64,000 nt of DNA, taken from NCBI RefSeq assembly GCF_048403405.1, contig NZ_CP183129.1. One strand, written 5' to 3'. The notes under the pieces were generated by a model. The model had not been told where the DNA came from. It searched no databases and worked only from the letters and a program-made list of their open reading frames with translations. This document shows positions 13,442 through 21,434 of the stretch, piece by piece. The translations under genes were made by a program, and so were the position numbers. Position 1 is the first letter of the stretch. Each line of letters opens with the position of its first letter. The stretch is from Escherichia coli (GTDB taxonomy: Bacteria > Pseudomonadota > Gammaproteobacteria > Enterobacterales > Enterobacteriaceae).

Positions 13442-13708
13442 ATGGCATTACTCGATTTCTTTCTCTCGCGGAAGAAAAACACGGCCAACATTGCAAAAGA
13501 ACGGCTGCAGATTATTGTTGCTGAACGCCGTCGCAGCGATGCAGAACCGCATTATCTGCCGCAGTTGCGTAAAGATATTCTTGAGGTCATTTGTAAATAC
13601 GTACAAATTGATCCTGAGATGGTAACCGTACAGCTTGAGCAAAAAGATGGCGATATTTCTATTCTTGAGCTGAACGTGACCTTGCCGGAAGCAGAAGAGC
13701 TGAAATAG
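13442..13708 (+). CDS. minE: Cell division topological specificity factor MinE
   Basis: 88-aa [34 protein letters not shown]... Confidence 0.95.
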
Positions 13709-13736
13709 GCCCGCTGTAAAAGCGCATTTCTCTTCA

Positions 13737-13768
13737 AGGCAGAGTCATCTCTGCCTTGCGTTTTTCAT
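13737..13768 (+). terminator. Intrinsic terminator after minCDE
   Basis: aaggcagagtcatctctgcctt hairpin followed by gcgttttt. Confidence 0.6.
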
Positions 13769-14072
13769 CCCCCTCATCCACGTTTGATAAGAGCGGCGAG
13801 TATTCTTGCTGATGCTACTCATTGCTTCCCCCCTTTACACCTTAATGCCGTTCCCCCCACACAGATCAAATTGTTTATACCTGGCTGAGTAAATAACCTT
13901 ATTGTTAGTATGGGTATACTGGGTGATGATAACCCCGCAATTTCATTATTCATTGTTCTCCCATAGGATGAGGTTTCCCGCCGTAACTGGCGGGCTTTTT
14001 TTGCCGCAGAATTTTTCCTTTTAACACCCTGTAAACGAAAACTGCGCCGAAGCGCAGTTTAATCGTTGATGG

Positions 14073-17000
14073 TCAGAACGACCAGTTCGCACCAGCCACC
14101 GCGTTCCACGGGGATTCCACACCGGCACCATGGCTATACCCCACCCCGAGATGCCCGCTTAACGAACTGCTGAATGAGGCTTTAATACCTGCCTGATATA
14201 TTCCACGTCTGCCCGACAAATCATTGACAAAATTACCGTCATTATTCACTTTCACCCGGTTATCATCGACAAATTCTTTGCGCACAGCCGCCTTCAGCCA
14301 CGGCTCAACTTCCATGCCGTTCCCCAGACGCATGTTGTAACTCAGCGTTGCGCCCAGTTCACGATATATACTGCGGGTATCGACTGATTTCGATTCCATG
14401 CCATTGGATAAATGATATTCGGGGTTATCAGCGGTGAACCCCGTTAACGATGCATACGGCGTCAGGTTCCAGTTACCATCGGTAAATCGCATCCCGGTTT
14501 CAATGTGCCCCCCCAGCCCGTTGCTATGATAACTGCCGTTGGCGGCTCCACCGCTGCTCATTTTACCGGCTACGTTACTTTCAAAGCGGTTCAGCTTCAC
14601 GATACCGTCCAGATAGAAACCACTTTCATGTTCCCAGCTGGCATAGCCCCCCAGAGAATAACTGCCCACACTGCCATGTCCTCCACGATCAAAACCGATA
14701 TGTGAATGGGAATAACCCATAAAAGCGCCCAGCGTCGCAATCCCCTCAGGAATATCATTACGACTGTCGATCCCCACTGTCATTCCGGTCAGCGTCTGCT
14801 CAAACCCGGCACCCGCATCGGTGGTGACATTATTACGGGTGTTATACGTCGTCCCCCAGACATTATTGTTGTGTGGACTCGCTTTCATTATGTTCAACCG
14901 CTCGCGAATACTGTTTAGCTCAGCATCAAAGACCAACGGTAATGTTGCTGCCATATTGAGTACGGCAGCCGTAGAAGGCGTGATGCGTTTCTCCGGAACG
15001 GGTGTCGGCGTTGGCTCGGGAGTCGGGTCTGGATTTGGATTTGGATTTGGATTTGGATTTGGATTTGGGTTCGGATTTGGATTTGGATTTGGATTTGGGT
15101 TCGGATTTGGGTTCGGATTTGGGTTCGGGTTCGGGTTCGGATTTGGATTTGGGTTGACATTATTAGTCAGGTTCCAGTTGCTGTTGCCGTCGCTTTTCAG
15201 GACATACTCATAGGTCCCAAGATCAACGAAACCGCCGGTATTGCCCAGCGTAAACGACGCATCCCCTCCCCCTGTTTTCACCAGCGTCATCGCATCGTCA
15301 GACTGAGGGCTGACGCCGGTATCCTGAACAAAGATTTTAAAATTACCAGTGGCGTTGTTGTTGACGATCAGTTGATCGCCCCGGGAGCCTGCAACGTTGG
15401 TATGCAGGTAGAAATTACCGCTGCCGGAAAGTTCACTGGTGGTCAGCGTATTGTAGATATCGTTAGTTGTGGCAGGCGCTGATAAATAAACATCACCGTC
15501 GTTGAGTAGCAAACTGTTTACTCTATATTCGCAGTTGCTGGTGCCTGCACAGGAATTATTGCTGTTAAGCCAGACACTGCCCCGGCTGGCAGCCGTCAGG
15601 TCGGCAAGCGTCGTATCAACGCCATTGCCGATAGTGAATGTCGCGCTATCGGTAATCCGGATCGCCCCTTCGAGTTTAACTGGCGTAACATTATCCCGTG
15701 GCGTCATTAACGACAGGCTTCCTGTCGCGCCACTGACCGATGCATCCGCCAGCGTACCTGCGTAGACGATTGCCGTCCCACCAGAGACCTGTAGATCTTC
15801 TGCCCGGGCCAGAGCCTGAAACTCATCTTTTGACCGCCCAAGGGTATATTGCCCACCAGAGTTAACCTTTGTGGCGGAGTCCTGACCCAGGTTTTGCATT
15901 GCACCACCCTTGTCAACCGTGGAGTCACGGGCTTCGGTACCTGCTAATACCAATAAATTACCGCCATTTTCCAGCAACATATTGGTCGCTAAATTGCTGG
16001 CAATGGAAAAGGTGCCGTACTGGTGCGTACCGCTGATTTCAATACCGTTAGCCGTGCTCGTCTGGAGAGCGGCACCGCTGTTCTGGACGATATCTGTCGC
16101 TTTGCCATTATCGTTGACTGTCAGCGTTCCGCCTTCATTGATCGTTGTTTTTATTGCCTCTCCGTTAGCTGAAACTGTTTGTATTCCGCCGTCGTTAATT
16201 GTTGTCTCATTTGCCACACCCTCGATGATTTGTTCACCGCCAGTGAGCGTCGTGCCTGTCGCAGTGGCTTTTGTTTTGACGATCTCCCGACCGCCCGCAT
16301 TAACCTGTGTTTTGGCGGAAGTGGTGTCTGACTCCACGGTTAACACGCCGCCATTTGTCAGCAGGATATTGTTCGCCGCACCCTGCTCGATGCTGAACGC
16401 GACGCCATCAGCGCGTGTCCCTGTGACCCGCGTCGCCCTGGTGGTTGCAACCAACGCGCCCTGACTACTCTGCTGTATCCCCGTTGCGCTGCCTTTCTCC
16501 CGCACATCGAGTATGCCGCCATTGTTAAGTCTGGTGGTATATGCTACGGCCTCCTCGTGGACAATCAGCTTACCGCCAGCATCAACGATGGTATCTACCG
16601 CCGAGGTTTGAGCTACGACCGTCAGTTGGCCGGTATTTTCCAGCACAACATGCTCAGCCCTGCCTCCGGTAATAGTGAAGTGAGATGACCTCTGGTATCC
16701 ATCAATATCAGTCCCCGCGCCCGTATTGGCAACTAAAGCGCTCCCCGTGTCCAGGTAAACCCCATGTGCGATACCGCCGGTATCGACAATCAGCGTGCCT
16801 CCGGCGCGAATATTGCTGCCAGTTGCCGTACCTCCTTTCTCAACAACCTGCTTGCTCCCGGAAGAGATATTTGTTGTGTCAGCTTTCCCGCCGCTCTTGA
16901 TATTTTGCGTGCCACTGTTGATATTGGTTCCCGTAGCAATACCATGATTATAAATATTCTGTGTACCGCCATTAATTATGGTATTAGTCGCGTTCCCGGC

Positions 17001-17441
17001 AACATCCATGGCCCCGCCGTTATCTATTCGGGTCGCATCAGCTTTAGCATTCGTTAAAACTGACATTGTTCCTTTATCGTTAATTATCGTCCCTGTAGAA
17101 ATTCCTCCCTCACTAATTGTCTGGCTGCCACCGTTAATGACTGTATTATTAGCCTGCCCCTGATAAGAGCCATGACCAGATACCTCTTGATGTCCACCAG
17201 TATCAATAACACTTCCATTAGAAATCCCGCCATATACCTCCTGATTGCCGTGATTGATGATATGAGCATTATTTGTTGTACCTCGTTCATCTACTCTTTG
17301 GCTGCCGTCTACAGTCTCATCATTTACAACGCCAATAACATTAGAAGTGAAGGCCGTCATCCCAGGCGGGGCATATATCATGGCAGCTATCAATAAGGAA
17401 AGTACTGAGCGGTGAAAATAATAGCGACTGATTCTGTTCAT
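14073..17441 (-). CDS. Type Va autotransporter adhesin (intact; positional equivalent of the K-12 ycgI pseudogene)
   Basis: 1165-aa ORF; N-terminal signal peptide (MNRISRYYFHRSVLSLLIAAMIYA), long Gly/Thr/Asn-rich passenger with repeated GG-x-x-I/V motifs, (NP)n linker, C-terminal beta-barrel ending ...GANWSF; start chosen at internal Met with RBS, ORF extends to 17570. Confidence 0.75.
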   Translation of the reverse strand: MNRISRYYFHRSVLSLLIAAMIYAPPGMTAFTSNVIGVVNDETVDGSQRVDERGTTNNAHIINHGNQEVYGGISNGSVIDTGGHQEVSGHGSYQGQANNTVINGGSQTISEGGISTGTIINDKGTMSVLTNAKADATRIDNGGAMDVAGNATNTIINGGTQNIYNHGIATGTNINSGTQNIKSGGKADTTNISSGSKQVVEKGGTATGSNIRAGGTLIVDTGGIAHGVYLDTGSALVANTGAGTDIDGYQRSSHFTITGGRAEHVVLENTGQLTVVAQTSAVDTIVDAGGKLIVHEEAVAYTTRLNNGGILDVREKGSATGIQQSSQGALVATTRATRVTGTRADGVAFSIEQGAANNILLTNGGVLTVESDTTSAKTQVNAGGREIVKTKATATGTTLTGGEQIIEGVANETTINDGGIQTVSANGEAIKTTINEGGTLTVNDNGKATDIVQNSGAALQTSTANGIEISGTHQYGTFSIASNLATNMLLENGGNLLVLAGTEARDSTVDKGGAMQNLGQDSATKVNSGGQYTLGRSKDEFQALARAEDLQVSGGTAIVYAGTLADASVSGATGSLSLMTPRDNVTPVKLEGAIRITDSATFTIGNGVDTTLADLTAASRGSVWLNSNNSCAGTSNCEYRVNSLLLNDGDVYLSAPATTNDIYNTLTTSELSGSGNFYLHTNVAGSRGDQLIVNNNATGNFKIFVQDTGVSPQSDDAMTLVKTGGGDASFTLGNTGGFVDLGTYEYVLKSDGNSNWNLTNNVNPNPNPNPNPNPNPNPNPNPNPNPNPNPNPNPNPNPNPNPNPDPTPEPTPTPVPEKRITPSTAAVLNMAATLPLVFDAELNSIRERLNIMKASPHNNNVWGTTYNTRNNVTTDAGAGFEQTLTGMTVGIDSRNDIPEGIATLGAFMGYSHSHIGFDRGGHGSVGSYSLGGYASWEHESGFYLDGIVKLNRFESNVAGKMSSGGAANGSYHSNGLGGHIETGMRFTDGNWNLTPYASLTGFTADNPEYHLSNGMESKSVDTRSIYRELGATLSYNMRLGNGMEVEPWLKAAVRKEFVDDNRVKVNNDGNFVNDLSGRRGIYQAGIKASFSSSLSGHLGVGYSHGAGVESPWNAVAGANWSF
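15029..15156. repeat. Hexanucleotide tandem repeat (ggattt/gggttc)n encoding an (Asn-Pro)~21 linker inside the autotransporter
   Basis: Direct reading: about 21 consecutive 6-nt units; translated on minus strand as NPNPNP...NPDPTPEPTPTP. Confidence 0.9.
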
Positions 17442-18046
17442 AAATTTCATCCTCTGAAAAATGAATACTGAGTAGCGTCTAAGTAACCTAAGCTCGGCTG
17501 CAACATCAGCCCGCAGGCACCAGACCAGGGGATTCATCCTGAAGAGACAGCGCAGGTGTATTGTGTTCACCGCTCACCAAAGACATCATGATGAAATGAT
17601 GATATCCCGCATAAGAAAGAGGCATTTTTTAAACGCAGTGCGCTGAAGTGTAGTTGGATAAAAAATCACTCTTTTCAGATAATACTGTCGTACGCTTATC
17701 TTTCGACAATGAGGCCGTCGGCAAAATAAAATGACTAATGTAATCGTTGCTGATGAATATCTTCTGCTCACATAAAAATCACACAATAATATTGATAAAT
17801 CAGATTATCTTACCTTTACAACATTGCGTTAACAGTCAATGACACTTCTTGAATAAAAATATTGTCAATCAATGAGTTATTTCTCATTTGAGATTATTCT
17901 CATTCCCGTAAAAAACATAATTCCTATCATCACCGTCACGCTCATTTTGAATTATCTGAATAATAGCGAGCGTTCTTTAGTTAAGCAGATCTTAATTGAA
18001 GACGAAATTATTGTGTGTGCAACTTACTTAATACCGGACATCTAAG

Positions 18047-18785: not shown

Positions 18786-21434
18786 TCAGAACTTATATTT
18801 CAGGCCCACCATCACTGCGGTGTCATTGTAGCCATTATCACCCAGCTGCACGCCCACATTACCCCAGACGCTGGCCGCCGGATTCAGATTGCCATTTACG
18901 CCAAGTTTAATTTCCCCCAGATTACGCGCCCCGTCTTGTTCAACTTTCACACCGTTCATTGAGACAGCAAAATCTTTACTGTTATGGATCCAGTTCATTT
19001 CAACAAAAGGTTCAAAGTCGTCACCGTGCGGACCGCTGTTTTTCTCCTGAGTACGAATAAAGGTACGGAAGCCGAGTCGGGTCTGGATGTTGTTATTTGC
19101 GTCATTCTCAATACGTGAGCCATTGGCTTCCGTGTGCGCATTATGATCGACGCCCATCCAGATAGCCTGTGCCTGTGGCTGGAAGATCCACGTATATTTC
19201 GCCGCTTCCAGACCAAAGGATTTATTCAGGGCAAAACCGTAACCCGCTTCCAGCGAGACGGTTGCACCTTTCGCGCTATAGGATTCATAGGCTAACTCAT
19301 CCCCTTTCACCGAGTTTTTAAACCAGCTATATTGCGCCCAGGCGTCAATGTATGCGCCTTTTTTACTGATGTCATCGGCAAACCAGGTGGCATACAGCCC
19401 TGCGCTATAGCCTCTGACACTCCCTTTCGAACGATAATCCGACACGCTGGAATGAGTTGAGTTGTAGTCGCGGGCATAACCAGCCATCACTCCCAAACGC
19501 CAACTGTCACTGTCGGTAAAACCACCGGTTAACAGATCCGCCCCTAACTGCGAGACGTAGCGATGCGAGGTCGTTCTCAACTGTCCGTTGCTGTCACGCC
19601 AGGCATTATGCCCGCCAATTTGACGTAGCCAAAGTCGGCTTGAACGCTCCTGTTCAGTTACAGGATCGATGTAGCGCGTTTCACCTGCACGATCGTTCAG
19701 ACGCATAACAAAAAGAGTGTTAGCGGCTGCCAGATTGGCGACGTAACTTCCAGCTTCGGGGCGCAGGACGGGGGTAGGCGCAACAGTAGGCGCTGAACTT
19801 CCTCCGGAGTTTGTTTCACCGCCGCTCGTTGCCTGGAAGTTAGTCAGATACCAGTTTTTATTGGTCGCTTCGGTATTACCTCGGGTTAATGAATATTCGT
19901 AGGCACCGGCGAAAATCCTCGAATCCTTAATAAATTCCCCATTTGATTCCCCCTCAACGCTGATAATCTCTATCCCATTTAACGTGTAAGCCCCGCTGCC
20001 CCCAGCATTGGTAACTTTTACTCGGGTTGTTCCGGAGGTATTTCCATTAATAACAACTTTATCAGTAGCTGAATTATCATCACCCAATTCAGTTCTGAGA
20101 TGCAATACGCCATTATTACCAACGTAATTTTCAGTTATTGTTAACCTTGTTGGTTCGAAATCCTTTCCATCTGCCCGGGAAATATAGACCGTACTATTGT
20201 CAACCGTGAGCTTGCTCACCGTTGAGTCAGTTTTAATATCCCAGGTACTATTATCTGAAAGCGACAGATAGGTATGAGTGCTATCATCTGTTGAAAGATT
20301 GGCTGAACCCGTTATTTTTGAATTAGATGCATCGATGGCCAAATGACCTTTAATATTATTAATAAAAACATCTGCAGCCGATGATACCTCACTATCCGTA
20401 ATGGTCACGTTACTCGTCTCATTTTTATTGTAGAGGATTTCATTTGCTGACCGTAGTGAGCTACCAGATAAAATATCTACCGTTGCTTCCTGACCATTTA
20501 TGGAAGACTCCAGCACAATTCCAGCCCCCTGATGCGCGACTGCAGATGTATTTTTCAGCGTCACCTTGCCGCCATTATAAATTTTAGCAATCGCGGCGTC
20601 AGGACCCGTTGTATGAATTTCTCCCTGGTTAAATGAAACAGTCCCCTGGCGAGCAGCGATGGCATGAGCATTGTCCCCATACGTGGTAATATCAACATCG
20701 GTTAATGTAACGCTGGCATTGGTATAATCAAGCTTGCTACCCGCCTTGACGACAGTGCCATTAGCGTAAGCGGCATAACTTTCTGTTCCGAGGGTTGTTA
20801 TCTCCCCTTTTGCCATATCCAGTTTTGCTTTGGCGTTATTTTCATTACTTCCTGTATCGGCAGTACTTTCTTCATCAAGAGAAGATACACACGCACGCGC
20901 GCTTCCGGGAGATGCACAAGCAAGAACGCCGACTGCGTGATTACCCGCAGTAACAATAAAAGTATTACCTTCGTCAGATAAATGGGGGTTAACCGAACCG
21001 TCAGTGTTGACTCTTATTATGGTATCAGTATTCAGGTTTCCATTCGTTTGACTTAGCAAACCAATTGAGTAATCCCCCGTTGTGACAATCGTATTATTAC
21101 CCTGCAAAATAACTGCACCGCCATATTCACTTACGACTGCGCTAGCTGTATATACTGTGCTTAGAGGATTATTGCCAGAAGGATATAAACCACCCGTTGT
21201 TACAATGACGCCTTTGTTAATGGTTAAATTGCTACCCTCTCCTGCAACAGATACCCCGTAACTTCCATTACCCGTTGTTATAACTAGCGCATTATCAATA
21301 TCTTTTACTTCTCCATCTTTTATTGCCACAGCATGTTTATATTCATCGTACTGAATAAACTGTTCAGCATATGCATTACCCACCGCCAGAGCAATAAGTC
21401 CTAAACTAAACCCGGGGAGTTTTTTCAGTTTCAT
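18786..21434 (-). CDS. Type Va autotransporter (intact; positional equivalent of the K-12 ycgH pseudogene)
   Basis: 882-aa ORF; signal peptide MKLKKLPGFSLGLIALAVGNAYA, passenger domain, C-terminal beta-barrel ending ...VGLKYKF. Confidence 0.75.
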   Translation of the reverse strand: MKLKKLPGFSLGLIALAVGNAYAEQFIQYDEYKHAVAIKDGEVKDIDNALVITTGNGSYGVSVAGEGSNLTINKGVIVTTGGLYPSGNNPLSTVYTASAVVSEYGGAVILQGNNTIVTTGDYSIGLLSQTNGNLNTDTIIRVNTDGSVNPHLSDEGNTFIVTAGNHAVGVLACASPGSARACVSSLDEESTADTGSNENNAKAKLDMAKGEITTLGTESYAAYANGTVVKAGSKLDYTNASVTLTDVDITTYGDNAHAIAARQGTVSFNQGEIHTTGPDAAIAKIYNGGKVTLKNTSAVAHQGAGIVLESSINGQEATVDILSGSSLRSANEILYNKNETSNVTITDSEVSSAADVFINNIKGHLAIDASNSKITGSANLSTDDSTHTYLSLSDNSTWDIKTDSTVSKLTVDNSTVYISRADGKDFEPTRLTITENYVGNNGVLHLRTELGDDNSATDKVVINGNTSGTTRVKVTNAGGSGAYTLNGIEIISVEGESNGEFIKDSRIFAGAYEYSLTRGNTEATNKNWYLTNFQATSGGETNSGGSSAPTVAPTPVLRPEAGSYVANLAAANTLFVMRLNDRAGETRYIDPVTEQERSSRLWLRQIGGHNAWRDSNGQLRTTSHRYVSQLGADLLTGGFTDSDSWRLGVMAGYARDYNSTHSSVSDYRSKGSVRGYSAGLYATWFADDISKKGAYIDAWAQYSWFKNSVKGDELAYESYSAKGATVSLEAGYGFALNKSFGLEAAKYTWIFQPQAQAIWMGVDHNAHTEANGSRIENDANNNIQTRLGFRTFIRTQEKNSGPHGDDFEPFVEMNWIHNSKDFAVSMNGVKVEQDGARNLGEIKLGVNGNLNPAASVWGNVGVQLGDNGYNDTAVMVGLKYKF

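Follow-up and report, generated by a model that had tools for sequence, protein, structure and literature searches.

A predicted autotransporter at the Escherichia coli ycgI locus carries an Asn-Pro spacer whose length differs between strains

Between ymgJ and minE, Escherichia coli K-12 MG1655 carries only a 344 bp pseudogene, ycgI (b4521). At the same position, a 64,000-nucleotide stretch of E. coli DNA (NCBI RefSeq assembly GCF_048403405.1, contig NZ_CP183129.1; the whole stretch is hereafter called the window) has a long uninterrupted reading frame, part of which is a run of short tandem repeats encoding the dipeptide Asn-Pro. Two questions arise from this locus: whether the strain retains a complete surface protein that is broken in K-12, and whether the repeat changes the length of that protein from one strain to the next. 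Our answer is that the gene very probably encodes an intact classical (type Va) autotransporter of the AIDA-I type, a shorter paralog of YpjA/EhaD, with a spacer that varies in length, most simply through slippage. The features on which the argument turns are given here by their positions in the window:

14073..17441, minus strand: autotransporter coding sequence, 1122 amino acids (aa) plus stop, with no internal stop; an identical RefSeq coding sequence (CDS) is present in strain 4621
15030..15155, minus strand: (Asn-Pro)21 array of 21 six-nucleotide units, from the sequence and Tandem Repeats Finder (TRF); model confidence (predicted local distance difference test, pLDDT) below 50
14973..15029, minus strand: non-repetitive X-Pro tail of the spacer, residues 805-823 (DPTPEPTPTPVPEKR region), from the sequence

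The array encodes residues 763-804 of the protein, which are exactly (Asn-Pro)21. TRF reported it at 15030..15152 with a period of 6, 20.5 copies, 0% indels, 86% matches and a score of 162; as no other tandem repeat in the whole 64 kb window scores 50 or more, the array is far beyond what chance would produce. Four synonymous units are mixed within it, namely a (AATCCA, ten copies), b (AACCCA, five), c (AATCCG, four) and d (AACCCG, two), in the order b a c d d b c b c b a a a c b a a a a a a. No exact period-6 tract exceeds the one of 39 nt at the 3′ end, which holds six AATCCA units. An earlier note on this DNA had called the array a perfect hexanucleotide repeat, a description that is correct for the peptide and for the periodicity but not for the DNA with its four synonymous units. 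The Asn-Pro run is followed by a non-repetitive X-Pro tail, conserved in ypjA and in other alleles, so that the whole X-Pro spacer comprises 61 residues: (Asn-Pro)21 and then DPTPEPTPTPVPE.

The comparison of copy number across E. coli genomes that the earlier note had proposed was carried out with window positions 13600..15300 (minE through the barrel and spacer) as the query against 5,426 complete E. coli genomes. At least 80% of this query was present in 424 of them (7.8%), while most of the remaining genomes retain, as K-12 does, nothing of the gene but its final 345 nt beside minE (the 48% coverage class). Fourteen loci were fetched to span the range and their arrays were read directly, with the window and strain 4621 added; the sequences flanking the array, AACTGGAACCTGAC and GAGAAACGCATCAC, are usable as anchors. 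Direct reading gave 19, 20, 22, 23, 24, 25, 26, 27, 28, 29, 30, 33 and 38 units; the window and strain 4621 both have 21, and these two together with 13 of the fetched loci make up the 15 sampled alleles, the remaining fetched locus (L006) having a long ypjA-like allele with a KP/DP spacer. The rule that the number of units equals 21 + round((span - 1701)/6) was correct in 13 of 13 fetched cases, and it was applied to 120 genomes among the matches listed (the best 60 per query, for two haplotype queries), a ranking that favours alleles near the query in length and thus biases allele frequencies. In these 120 genomes the match spans were longer or shorter than the query by whole 6-nt steps, give or take 1 nt from an intergenic indel. 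The best 60 matches to the second haplotype consisted of 29 genomes with 26 units and 31 with 27, and 15 genomes among the matches listed have the same allele at +19 nt. Since many related genomes share one allele, the rate of change would not be extreme.

The length polymorphism between isolates that had been predicted is borne out by these counts, which are not invariant but range from 19 to 38 units and always differ by multiples of 6 nt. A full open reading frame (ORF) of 1118-1146 aa is kept in 13 of the 15 sampled alleles, and in all 13 intact alleles its length is exactly 1122 + 2 × (units - 21) codons. Every unit in every allele encodes Asn-Pro, the differences between units being confined to third positions. 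The array is an in-frame variable-number tandem repeat in the usual sense, its unit length being divisible by 3 and its copy number differing despite identical or nearly identical flanks.

Within a haplotype, differences are confined to three perfect sub-tracts: the 3′-terminal AATCCA run (5-13 units across alleles), the inner AATCCA run (2-5 units) and a run of the 12-nt AATCCGAACCCA (the cb unit; 2-8 units). The changes thus fall where slippage is expected. Over the 3,162 nt that lie outside the array, four pairs of alleles show no single-nucleotide polymorphism (SNP), and their unit counts are 1, 1, 2 and 6 apart; pairs with one SNP over the same length differ by up to 11 units. These figures indicate that the array changes much faster than point substitution proceeds. 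Replication slippage, which appears to be the simplest mechanism, or else unequal exchange, would add or remove whole units in the three sub-tracts. Because the unit is two codons long, every such change is in frame; the spacer would lengthen or shorten, and the gene would never be switched off by a change in the array.

For the same reason the gene was rejected as an ON/OFF phase-variable contingency gene, the unit being two codons and 13 of 13 intact alleles being in frame. A frameshift inside the array acting as an ON/OFF switch was likewise discarded, as the two frameshifted alleles in the sample (L004 and L007) break in the barrel instead, near residues 933 and 980. These two frameshifts (L004, ∼4250-4270; L007, ∼4329-4359) lie within some 50 codons of each other. 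A separate observation concerns a database variant of the protein, P0006 (883 aa, E. coli), in which the passenger (…LQVAGGT) is joined directly to a short PNPNPNPNPDPTPEPT stretch; both the pertactin-like junction and the greater part of the array are missing, and the variant resembles a further deletion that has one end within the repeat.

The protein that surrounds the spacer has the features of a type Va autotransporter, namely a putative Sec signal, a beta-helical passenger, a pertactin-like junction and a helix within a 12-strand barrel:

17352..17441, minus strand: putative Sec signal peptide, residues 1-30 (MNRISRYYFHR / SVLSLLIAAMIYA / PPGMTA), by inspection
15165..17351, minus strand: beta-helical passenger with AIDA repeats, ending in a pertactin-like junction, from Pfam, PDB sequence matches and the model
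15165..15521, minus strand: pertactin-like junction, residues 641-759, from PF03212
14880..14978, minus strand: alpha-helical linker of residues 822-854, predicted to occupy the pore of the barrel, from the AlphaFold helix
14076..14864, minus strand: 12-stranded translocator beta-barrel, residues ∼860-1122, from PF03797, BrkA 3qq2, the model and Foldseek

Judged by inspection only, the putative signal peptide has an n-region with three Arg, a hydrophobic core 13 residues long and, at position -1, Ala. Profile searches matched Pfam PF16168 (AIDA) to six stretches (E 1e-87), PF03212 (Pertactin) to residues 641-759 (E 1e-45), PF03797 (Autotransporter beta-domain) to residues 861-1100 (E 3e-46) and the NCBIfam autotransporter barrel model TIGR01414 (E 1e-92). 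Sequence searches of the PDB returned Ag43 (4kh3), TibA (4q1q) and AIDA-I-family passengers for the passenger (E 1e-27 to 1e-29), aligned pertactin (1dab) with the junction at query 616-760, and placed the BrkA beta-domain (3qq2) on the barrel at query 840-1122 (E 2e-23). An AlphaFold model of residues 600-1122 only, computed from a 21-sequence alignment, has a mean pLDDT of 81.9. In it, beta strands or beta-helix rungs extend up to residue 759 (model residue 160), including the junction region 641-759, which is modelled as beta-helix rungs; a long helix follows at residues 822-854 (model 223-255), and then 12 strands up to the C-terminal NWSF, with its aromatic last residue. The sole low-confidence segment of the model is residues 764-816, with pLDDT below 50. 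The helix motif RITPSTAAVLNMAA is invariant among homologues. When compared by Foldseek, the C-terminal unit matched the BrkA beta-domain 3qq2 with a target-normalised TM score of 0.90-0.91, with further matches to EspP, Hbp, AIDA-I (4mee) and NalP. The homologue search behind the folding alignment used residues 600-1122 and did not return full-length allele clusters; it also served for the comparison of spacers across genera. An exact-sequence cluster look-up found neither of the tested alleles in the protein collection.

The tract falls between the folded passenger, which ends at about residue 759, and the pore helix at 822-854, so that the Asn-Pro run and its DPTPEPTPTPVPE tail constitute a separate spacer. 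This agrees with the passenger-to-barrel linker of about 21 tandem 6-nt units that had been described before, as the 1122-aa reading frame, supported by profiles, solved homologues and the predicted fold, agrees with the earlier description of an intact autotransporter of more than 1100 aa. Membership of two named groups was considered and rejected: the protein scores 184 against the Ag43 equivalog model NF033177 and 160 against the AIDA-I equivalog model NF033176, the cut-off being 1200 in both cases. As far as its sequence allows the protein to be placed, it has repeats in common with the Ag43 and AIDA-I families and is a member of neither. Matches at residues 750-830 to Pfam Trypan_PARP, to the NCBIfam TonB and BimA models and to circumsporozoite entries in the PDB were set aside as reflecting composition and not homology.

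The start of the gene and its relation to the K-12 locus involve two further features:

17450..17454, minus strand: GAGGA resembling a Shine-Dalgarno sequence, 8 nt upstream of the ATG, read from the sequence
14418..17470, no strand: stretch absent from K-12 MG1655 according to the K-12 alignment, a 3,053 bp deletion that left the ycgI remnant

The ORF as called mechanically reaches further upstream, to a GTG at 17570, and RefSeq uses the ATG at 17441. The RefSeq CDS of strain 4621 (WP_181261135.1) is identical to the window gene and begins at the same ATG and the same residue. A frameshift elsewhere in the gene, which the earlier note had named as a sign of a nonfunctional gene, was looked for in the window gene and is not present there. 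The gene has ymgJ on one side and minE on the other, an arrangement seen in 15 genomes and with the K-12 remnant at the same place. K-12 MG1655 aligns only to window positions 17900..17471 and 14417..13600, and the 3,053 bp missing between them take in the start codon, the passenger, the spacer and the larger part of the barrel. What is left in K-12, the 344 bp ycgI, matches the last 345 nt of the gene at 94% identity; the suggestion, made earlier from position, that this K-12 pseudogene corresponds to the window gene is thus confirmed, ycgI being its positional counterpart and a deletion remnant.

A second autotransporter gene is intact at window positions 18786..21434 on the minus strand. 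It encodes 882 aa, carries the RefSeq name ‘ECIAI39_1904 family autotransporter adhesin’, sits at the position of the K-12 pseudogene ycgH (b4491) and has no repeat at its passenger-barrel junction. As this gene and the 1122-aa gene are both intact, the strain has kept both of the min-region autotransporters that were lost from K-12.

RefSeq, through its PGAP pipeline, names the min-locus gene ‘ypjA: adhesin-like autotransporter YpjA/EhaD’. YpjA/EhaD (b2647 in K-12, EhaD in enterohaemorrhagic E. coli) is an AIDA-I-type autotransporter linked to biofilm formation, and YpjA is counted with the autotransporter adhesins that form biofilms (PMC9289746). Identity between the two proteins is 80.7% over residues 119-1122, and they share their domain order, alpha-helix and barrel, along with an X-Pro spacer at the same place that ends in a …TPDPTPTPVPEKR-like tail. 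However, ypjA is a gene of 4,575 bp in a tRNA-Ile-linked island, whereas the window gene lies in the min region; YpjA has 1524 aa against 1122 here (402 aa more), the passenger here being ∼400 aa shorter, and the N-terminal third is only 37-47% identical. Most genomes with the min-locus gene match at two places, one per locus. Orthology with ypjA was rejected given the different locus, the shorter protein and the divergent N-terminal third, and on this sequence comparison the min-locus gene is to be regarded as a paralog of YpjA/EhaD. The RefSeq label ‘ypjA’ therefore covers a min-locus paralog and calls for correction; genomes with both genes show two ‘ypjA’, which could inflate or confuse ypjA/ehaD counts in virulence-gene surveys.

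The spacer of YpjA itself, KPNPDPIPNPKPDPKPDPKPDPNPKPDPTPDPTPTPVPEKR, is a mixed KP/DP/NP/IP run of ∼20 pairs (40 residues) with no homogeneous (NP)n. At the same position, X-Pro spacers that differ in length and composition are present in the homologues found in E. albertii, Citrobacter, Salmonella and Erwinia; YejO has none. The (Asn-Pro)n run seems to have arisen when Asn-Pro units multiplied inside an older, mixed X-Pro spacer. A long allele (at least 4,677 bp), with a ypjA-like KP/DP/NP spacer and no (NP)n, can also occur at the min locus (L006, strain E500002, 1..4674); the short allele looks like the product of an in-frame deletion among the AIDA repeats together with the Asn-Pro expansion. 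The spacer of the true ypjA varies among lineages in 6-nt steps as well, with spans of 1184, 1190 and 1196 over the same part of the query (e.g., L002 5130..9704). Upstream of the window gene, a 39-codon ORF (17506..17625, minus strand) lies 64 nt away and overlaps the end of ymgJ, and RefSeq annotates an ORF of equal size at the equal distance upstream of the true ypjA. This conserved ORF might act as a leader peptide or as a regulatory element, or it might be an artefact of annotation.

Variable proline-rich repeats have precedents in surface proteins. Pertactin of Bordetella pertussis has polymorphic Pro-rich passenger repeats, (GGxxP)n and (PQP)n. It is likewise a type Va protein with a homologous junction (PF03212; the 1dab match) and in-frame variable proline repeats near the C-terminal end of the passenger, but its units are of 15 nt and 9 nt, present in few copies and situated inside the folded passenger, whereas here a 6-nt unit occurs in 19-38 copies in a separate spacer. 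The closest analogue for how the Asn-Pro tract works may be the Ser-Asp R region of ClfA, ClfB and the Sdr proteins of Staphylococcus aureus, of which a minimum length is reportedly needed to project the binding domain. It too is a dipeptide repeat encoded by synonymous short DNA units, varies in length between strains and serves as a stalk. The staphylococcal proteins differ in being Gram-positive, sortase-anchored and without homology to the present one, and it is for their stalk that the length requirement is said to have been demonstrated. The proline-rich (Glu-Pro)n(Lys-Pro)n segment of TonB, reportedly a rod, is also an X-Pro dipeptide spacer thought to adopt extended polyproline II, and the NCBIfam TonB model matches residues 762-823 by composition; TonB is, however, periplasmic and not surface-exposed, and its run is no hypervariable DNA repeat.

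The possibility that the array is already in use as a marker of the generic E. coli scheme GECM-10 for MLVA, the typing of tandem repeats of variable number at multiple loci (CVN014, CVN016 or CVN017 being suspected), was ruled out by primer matching: none of the 20 primers in Table 1 of PMC8143711 matches the window, ypjA or the K-12 loci with up to three mismatches. A literature search found no paper describing the ycgI-locus autotransporter or its repeat. This locus is a fresh case of a familiar class, the surface-protein repeats rich in proline or in dipeptides whose copy number varies in frame, and not a new kind of system.

By homology, the protein may have a role as an adhesin or in biofilm formation. 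The spacer would be an extended, proline-stiffened tether outside the barrel, and its length would set how far the passenger projects through the lipopolysaccharide (LPS) and capsule layer. Fully extended polyproline II spans 0.31 nm per residue, and an X-Pro spacer fully extended in this form would measure ∼19 nm here and ∼18-29 nm across the alleles seen, plausibly the same order as the O-antigen layer. Capsule and O-antigen are said to shield short adhesins, and it is plausible that the length of the spacer alters the ‘reach’ of this one. The array might even serve as an evolvable length control, in-frame slippage tuning projection to the thickness of a lineage's own O-antigen or capsule, although we consider this extension of the idea unlikely. 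If it were true, copy number would track the type of surface polysaccharide and would decide whether the adhesin is exposed or shielded, and E. coli would have in this locus a graded means of variation as an alternative to ON/OFF switching.

Several points weigh against an intact autotransporter with a slippage-variable, reach-setting spacer. The low-confidence segment of the AlphaFold model (residues 764-816) says nothing about the rigidity of the tract, and slippage and RecA-dependent unequal exchange are indistinguishable from end-point alleles. The gene has been lost from ∼90% of complete E. coli genomes, and two of the 15 sampled alleles are disrupted, one cut by an IS66-family insertion sequence (IS) element and frameshifted in the barrel (L004), the other frameshifted in the barrel (L007). 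In O157:H7 strain 2159 (L018 6775..8160), the gene is inactivated by IS1203 (IS3 family), which lies inside the array after ∼9.5 Asn-Pro units, with a deletion of the remaining spacer, of the helix and of the barrel's first strands. Taken together, the widespread loss, the disrupted alleles and the IS insertion indicate that the gene is dispensable. The same evidence, along with the deletion remnant of 345 nt that is all most E. coli keep, would fit a silent, cryptic locus heading for loss as in K-12, with repeat variation as a symptom of relaxed constraint; laboratory expression of K-12 relatives such as YpjA is also reported to be poor. In genomes that retain the gene, however, the ratio of nonsynonymous to synonymous polymorphism (pN/pS) outside the array is about 0.15, ranging over 0.13-0.20 between intact alleles, with 50 polymorphic codons that are synonymous-only and 23 that change the amino acid. 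This low ratio points to purifying selection and, with the full reading frame in 13 of the 15 sampled alleles, makes a decaying gene a doubtful explanation. Errors that collapse or expand a short repeat during sequencing or assembly might also mimic variation in copy number, as the array (114-228 nt) nears short-read length and some assemblies are long-read only. Yet the differences are all whole 6-nt or 12-nt units within perfect sub-tracts, and within each allele the interspersed synonymous units form a pattern that is internally consistent. The recurrence of identical alleles in many independent assemblies of related strains, and a frame that is never broken, render an assembly artefact very unlikely, to the point of being scarcely credible.

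A neutral, length-tolerant spacer accounts for the data equally well as the idea of reach. In this explanation the array is hypermutable and slips, the protein tolerates a wide range of lengths, and the differences between strains are drift. The range of 19-38 units is indeed wide and continuous, with no obvious preferred value across haplotypes, and relatives work with a different spacer, such as the 40-residue mixed K/D/N-Pro run of YpjA, or with none, such as YejO. Retention of Asn-Pro by all units in all alleles does not sit easily with neutrality, nor does the absence of any allele below 19 units among the ∼120 genomes listed, although the latter is weak evidence given a ranking that favours similar lengths. 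We regard neutrality as quite possible, though somewhat less likely than not. The tract might instead act as an immune decoy or a site of antigenic variation, the exposed Asn-Pro run being an immunodominant epitope whose length alters antibody binding and not reach. It is predicted to be exposed and unstructured, and its PDB matches include the Asn-Pro-rich repeats of the Plasmodium circumsporozoite protein (compositional only); however, a change in copy number leaves the epitope itself unaltered, and we consider this explanation quite improbable.

The locus is a readily assayed E. coli case of a type Va autotransporter whose spacer is hypervariable and in frame. In the lineages that retain the gene, copy number might serve for high-resolution typing; judging tentatively from strain names, these lineages may include ST405-like strains, O166:H15 and enterotoxigenic E. 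coli of pigs. The alleles of 19-38 units constitute a natural allelic series in which the length of the tether could be tested against the exposure of the adhesin through LPS and capsule.

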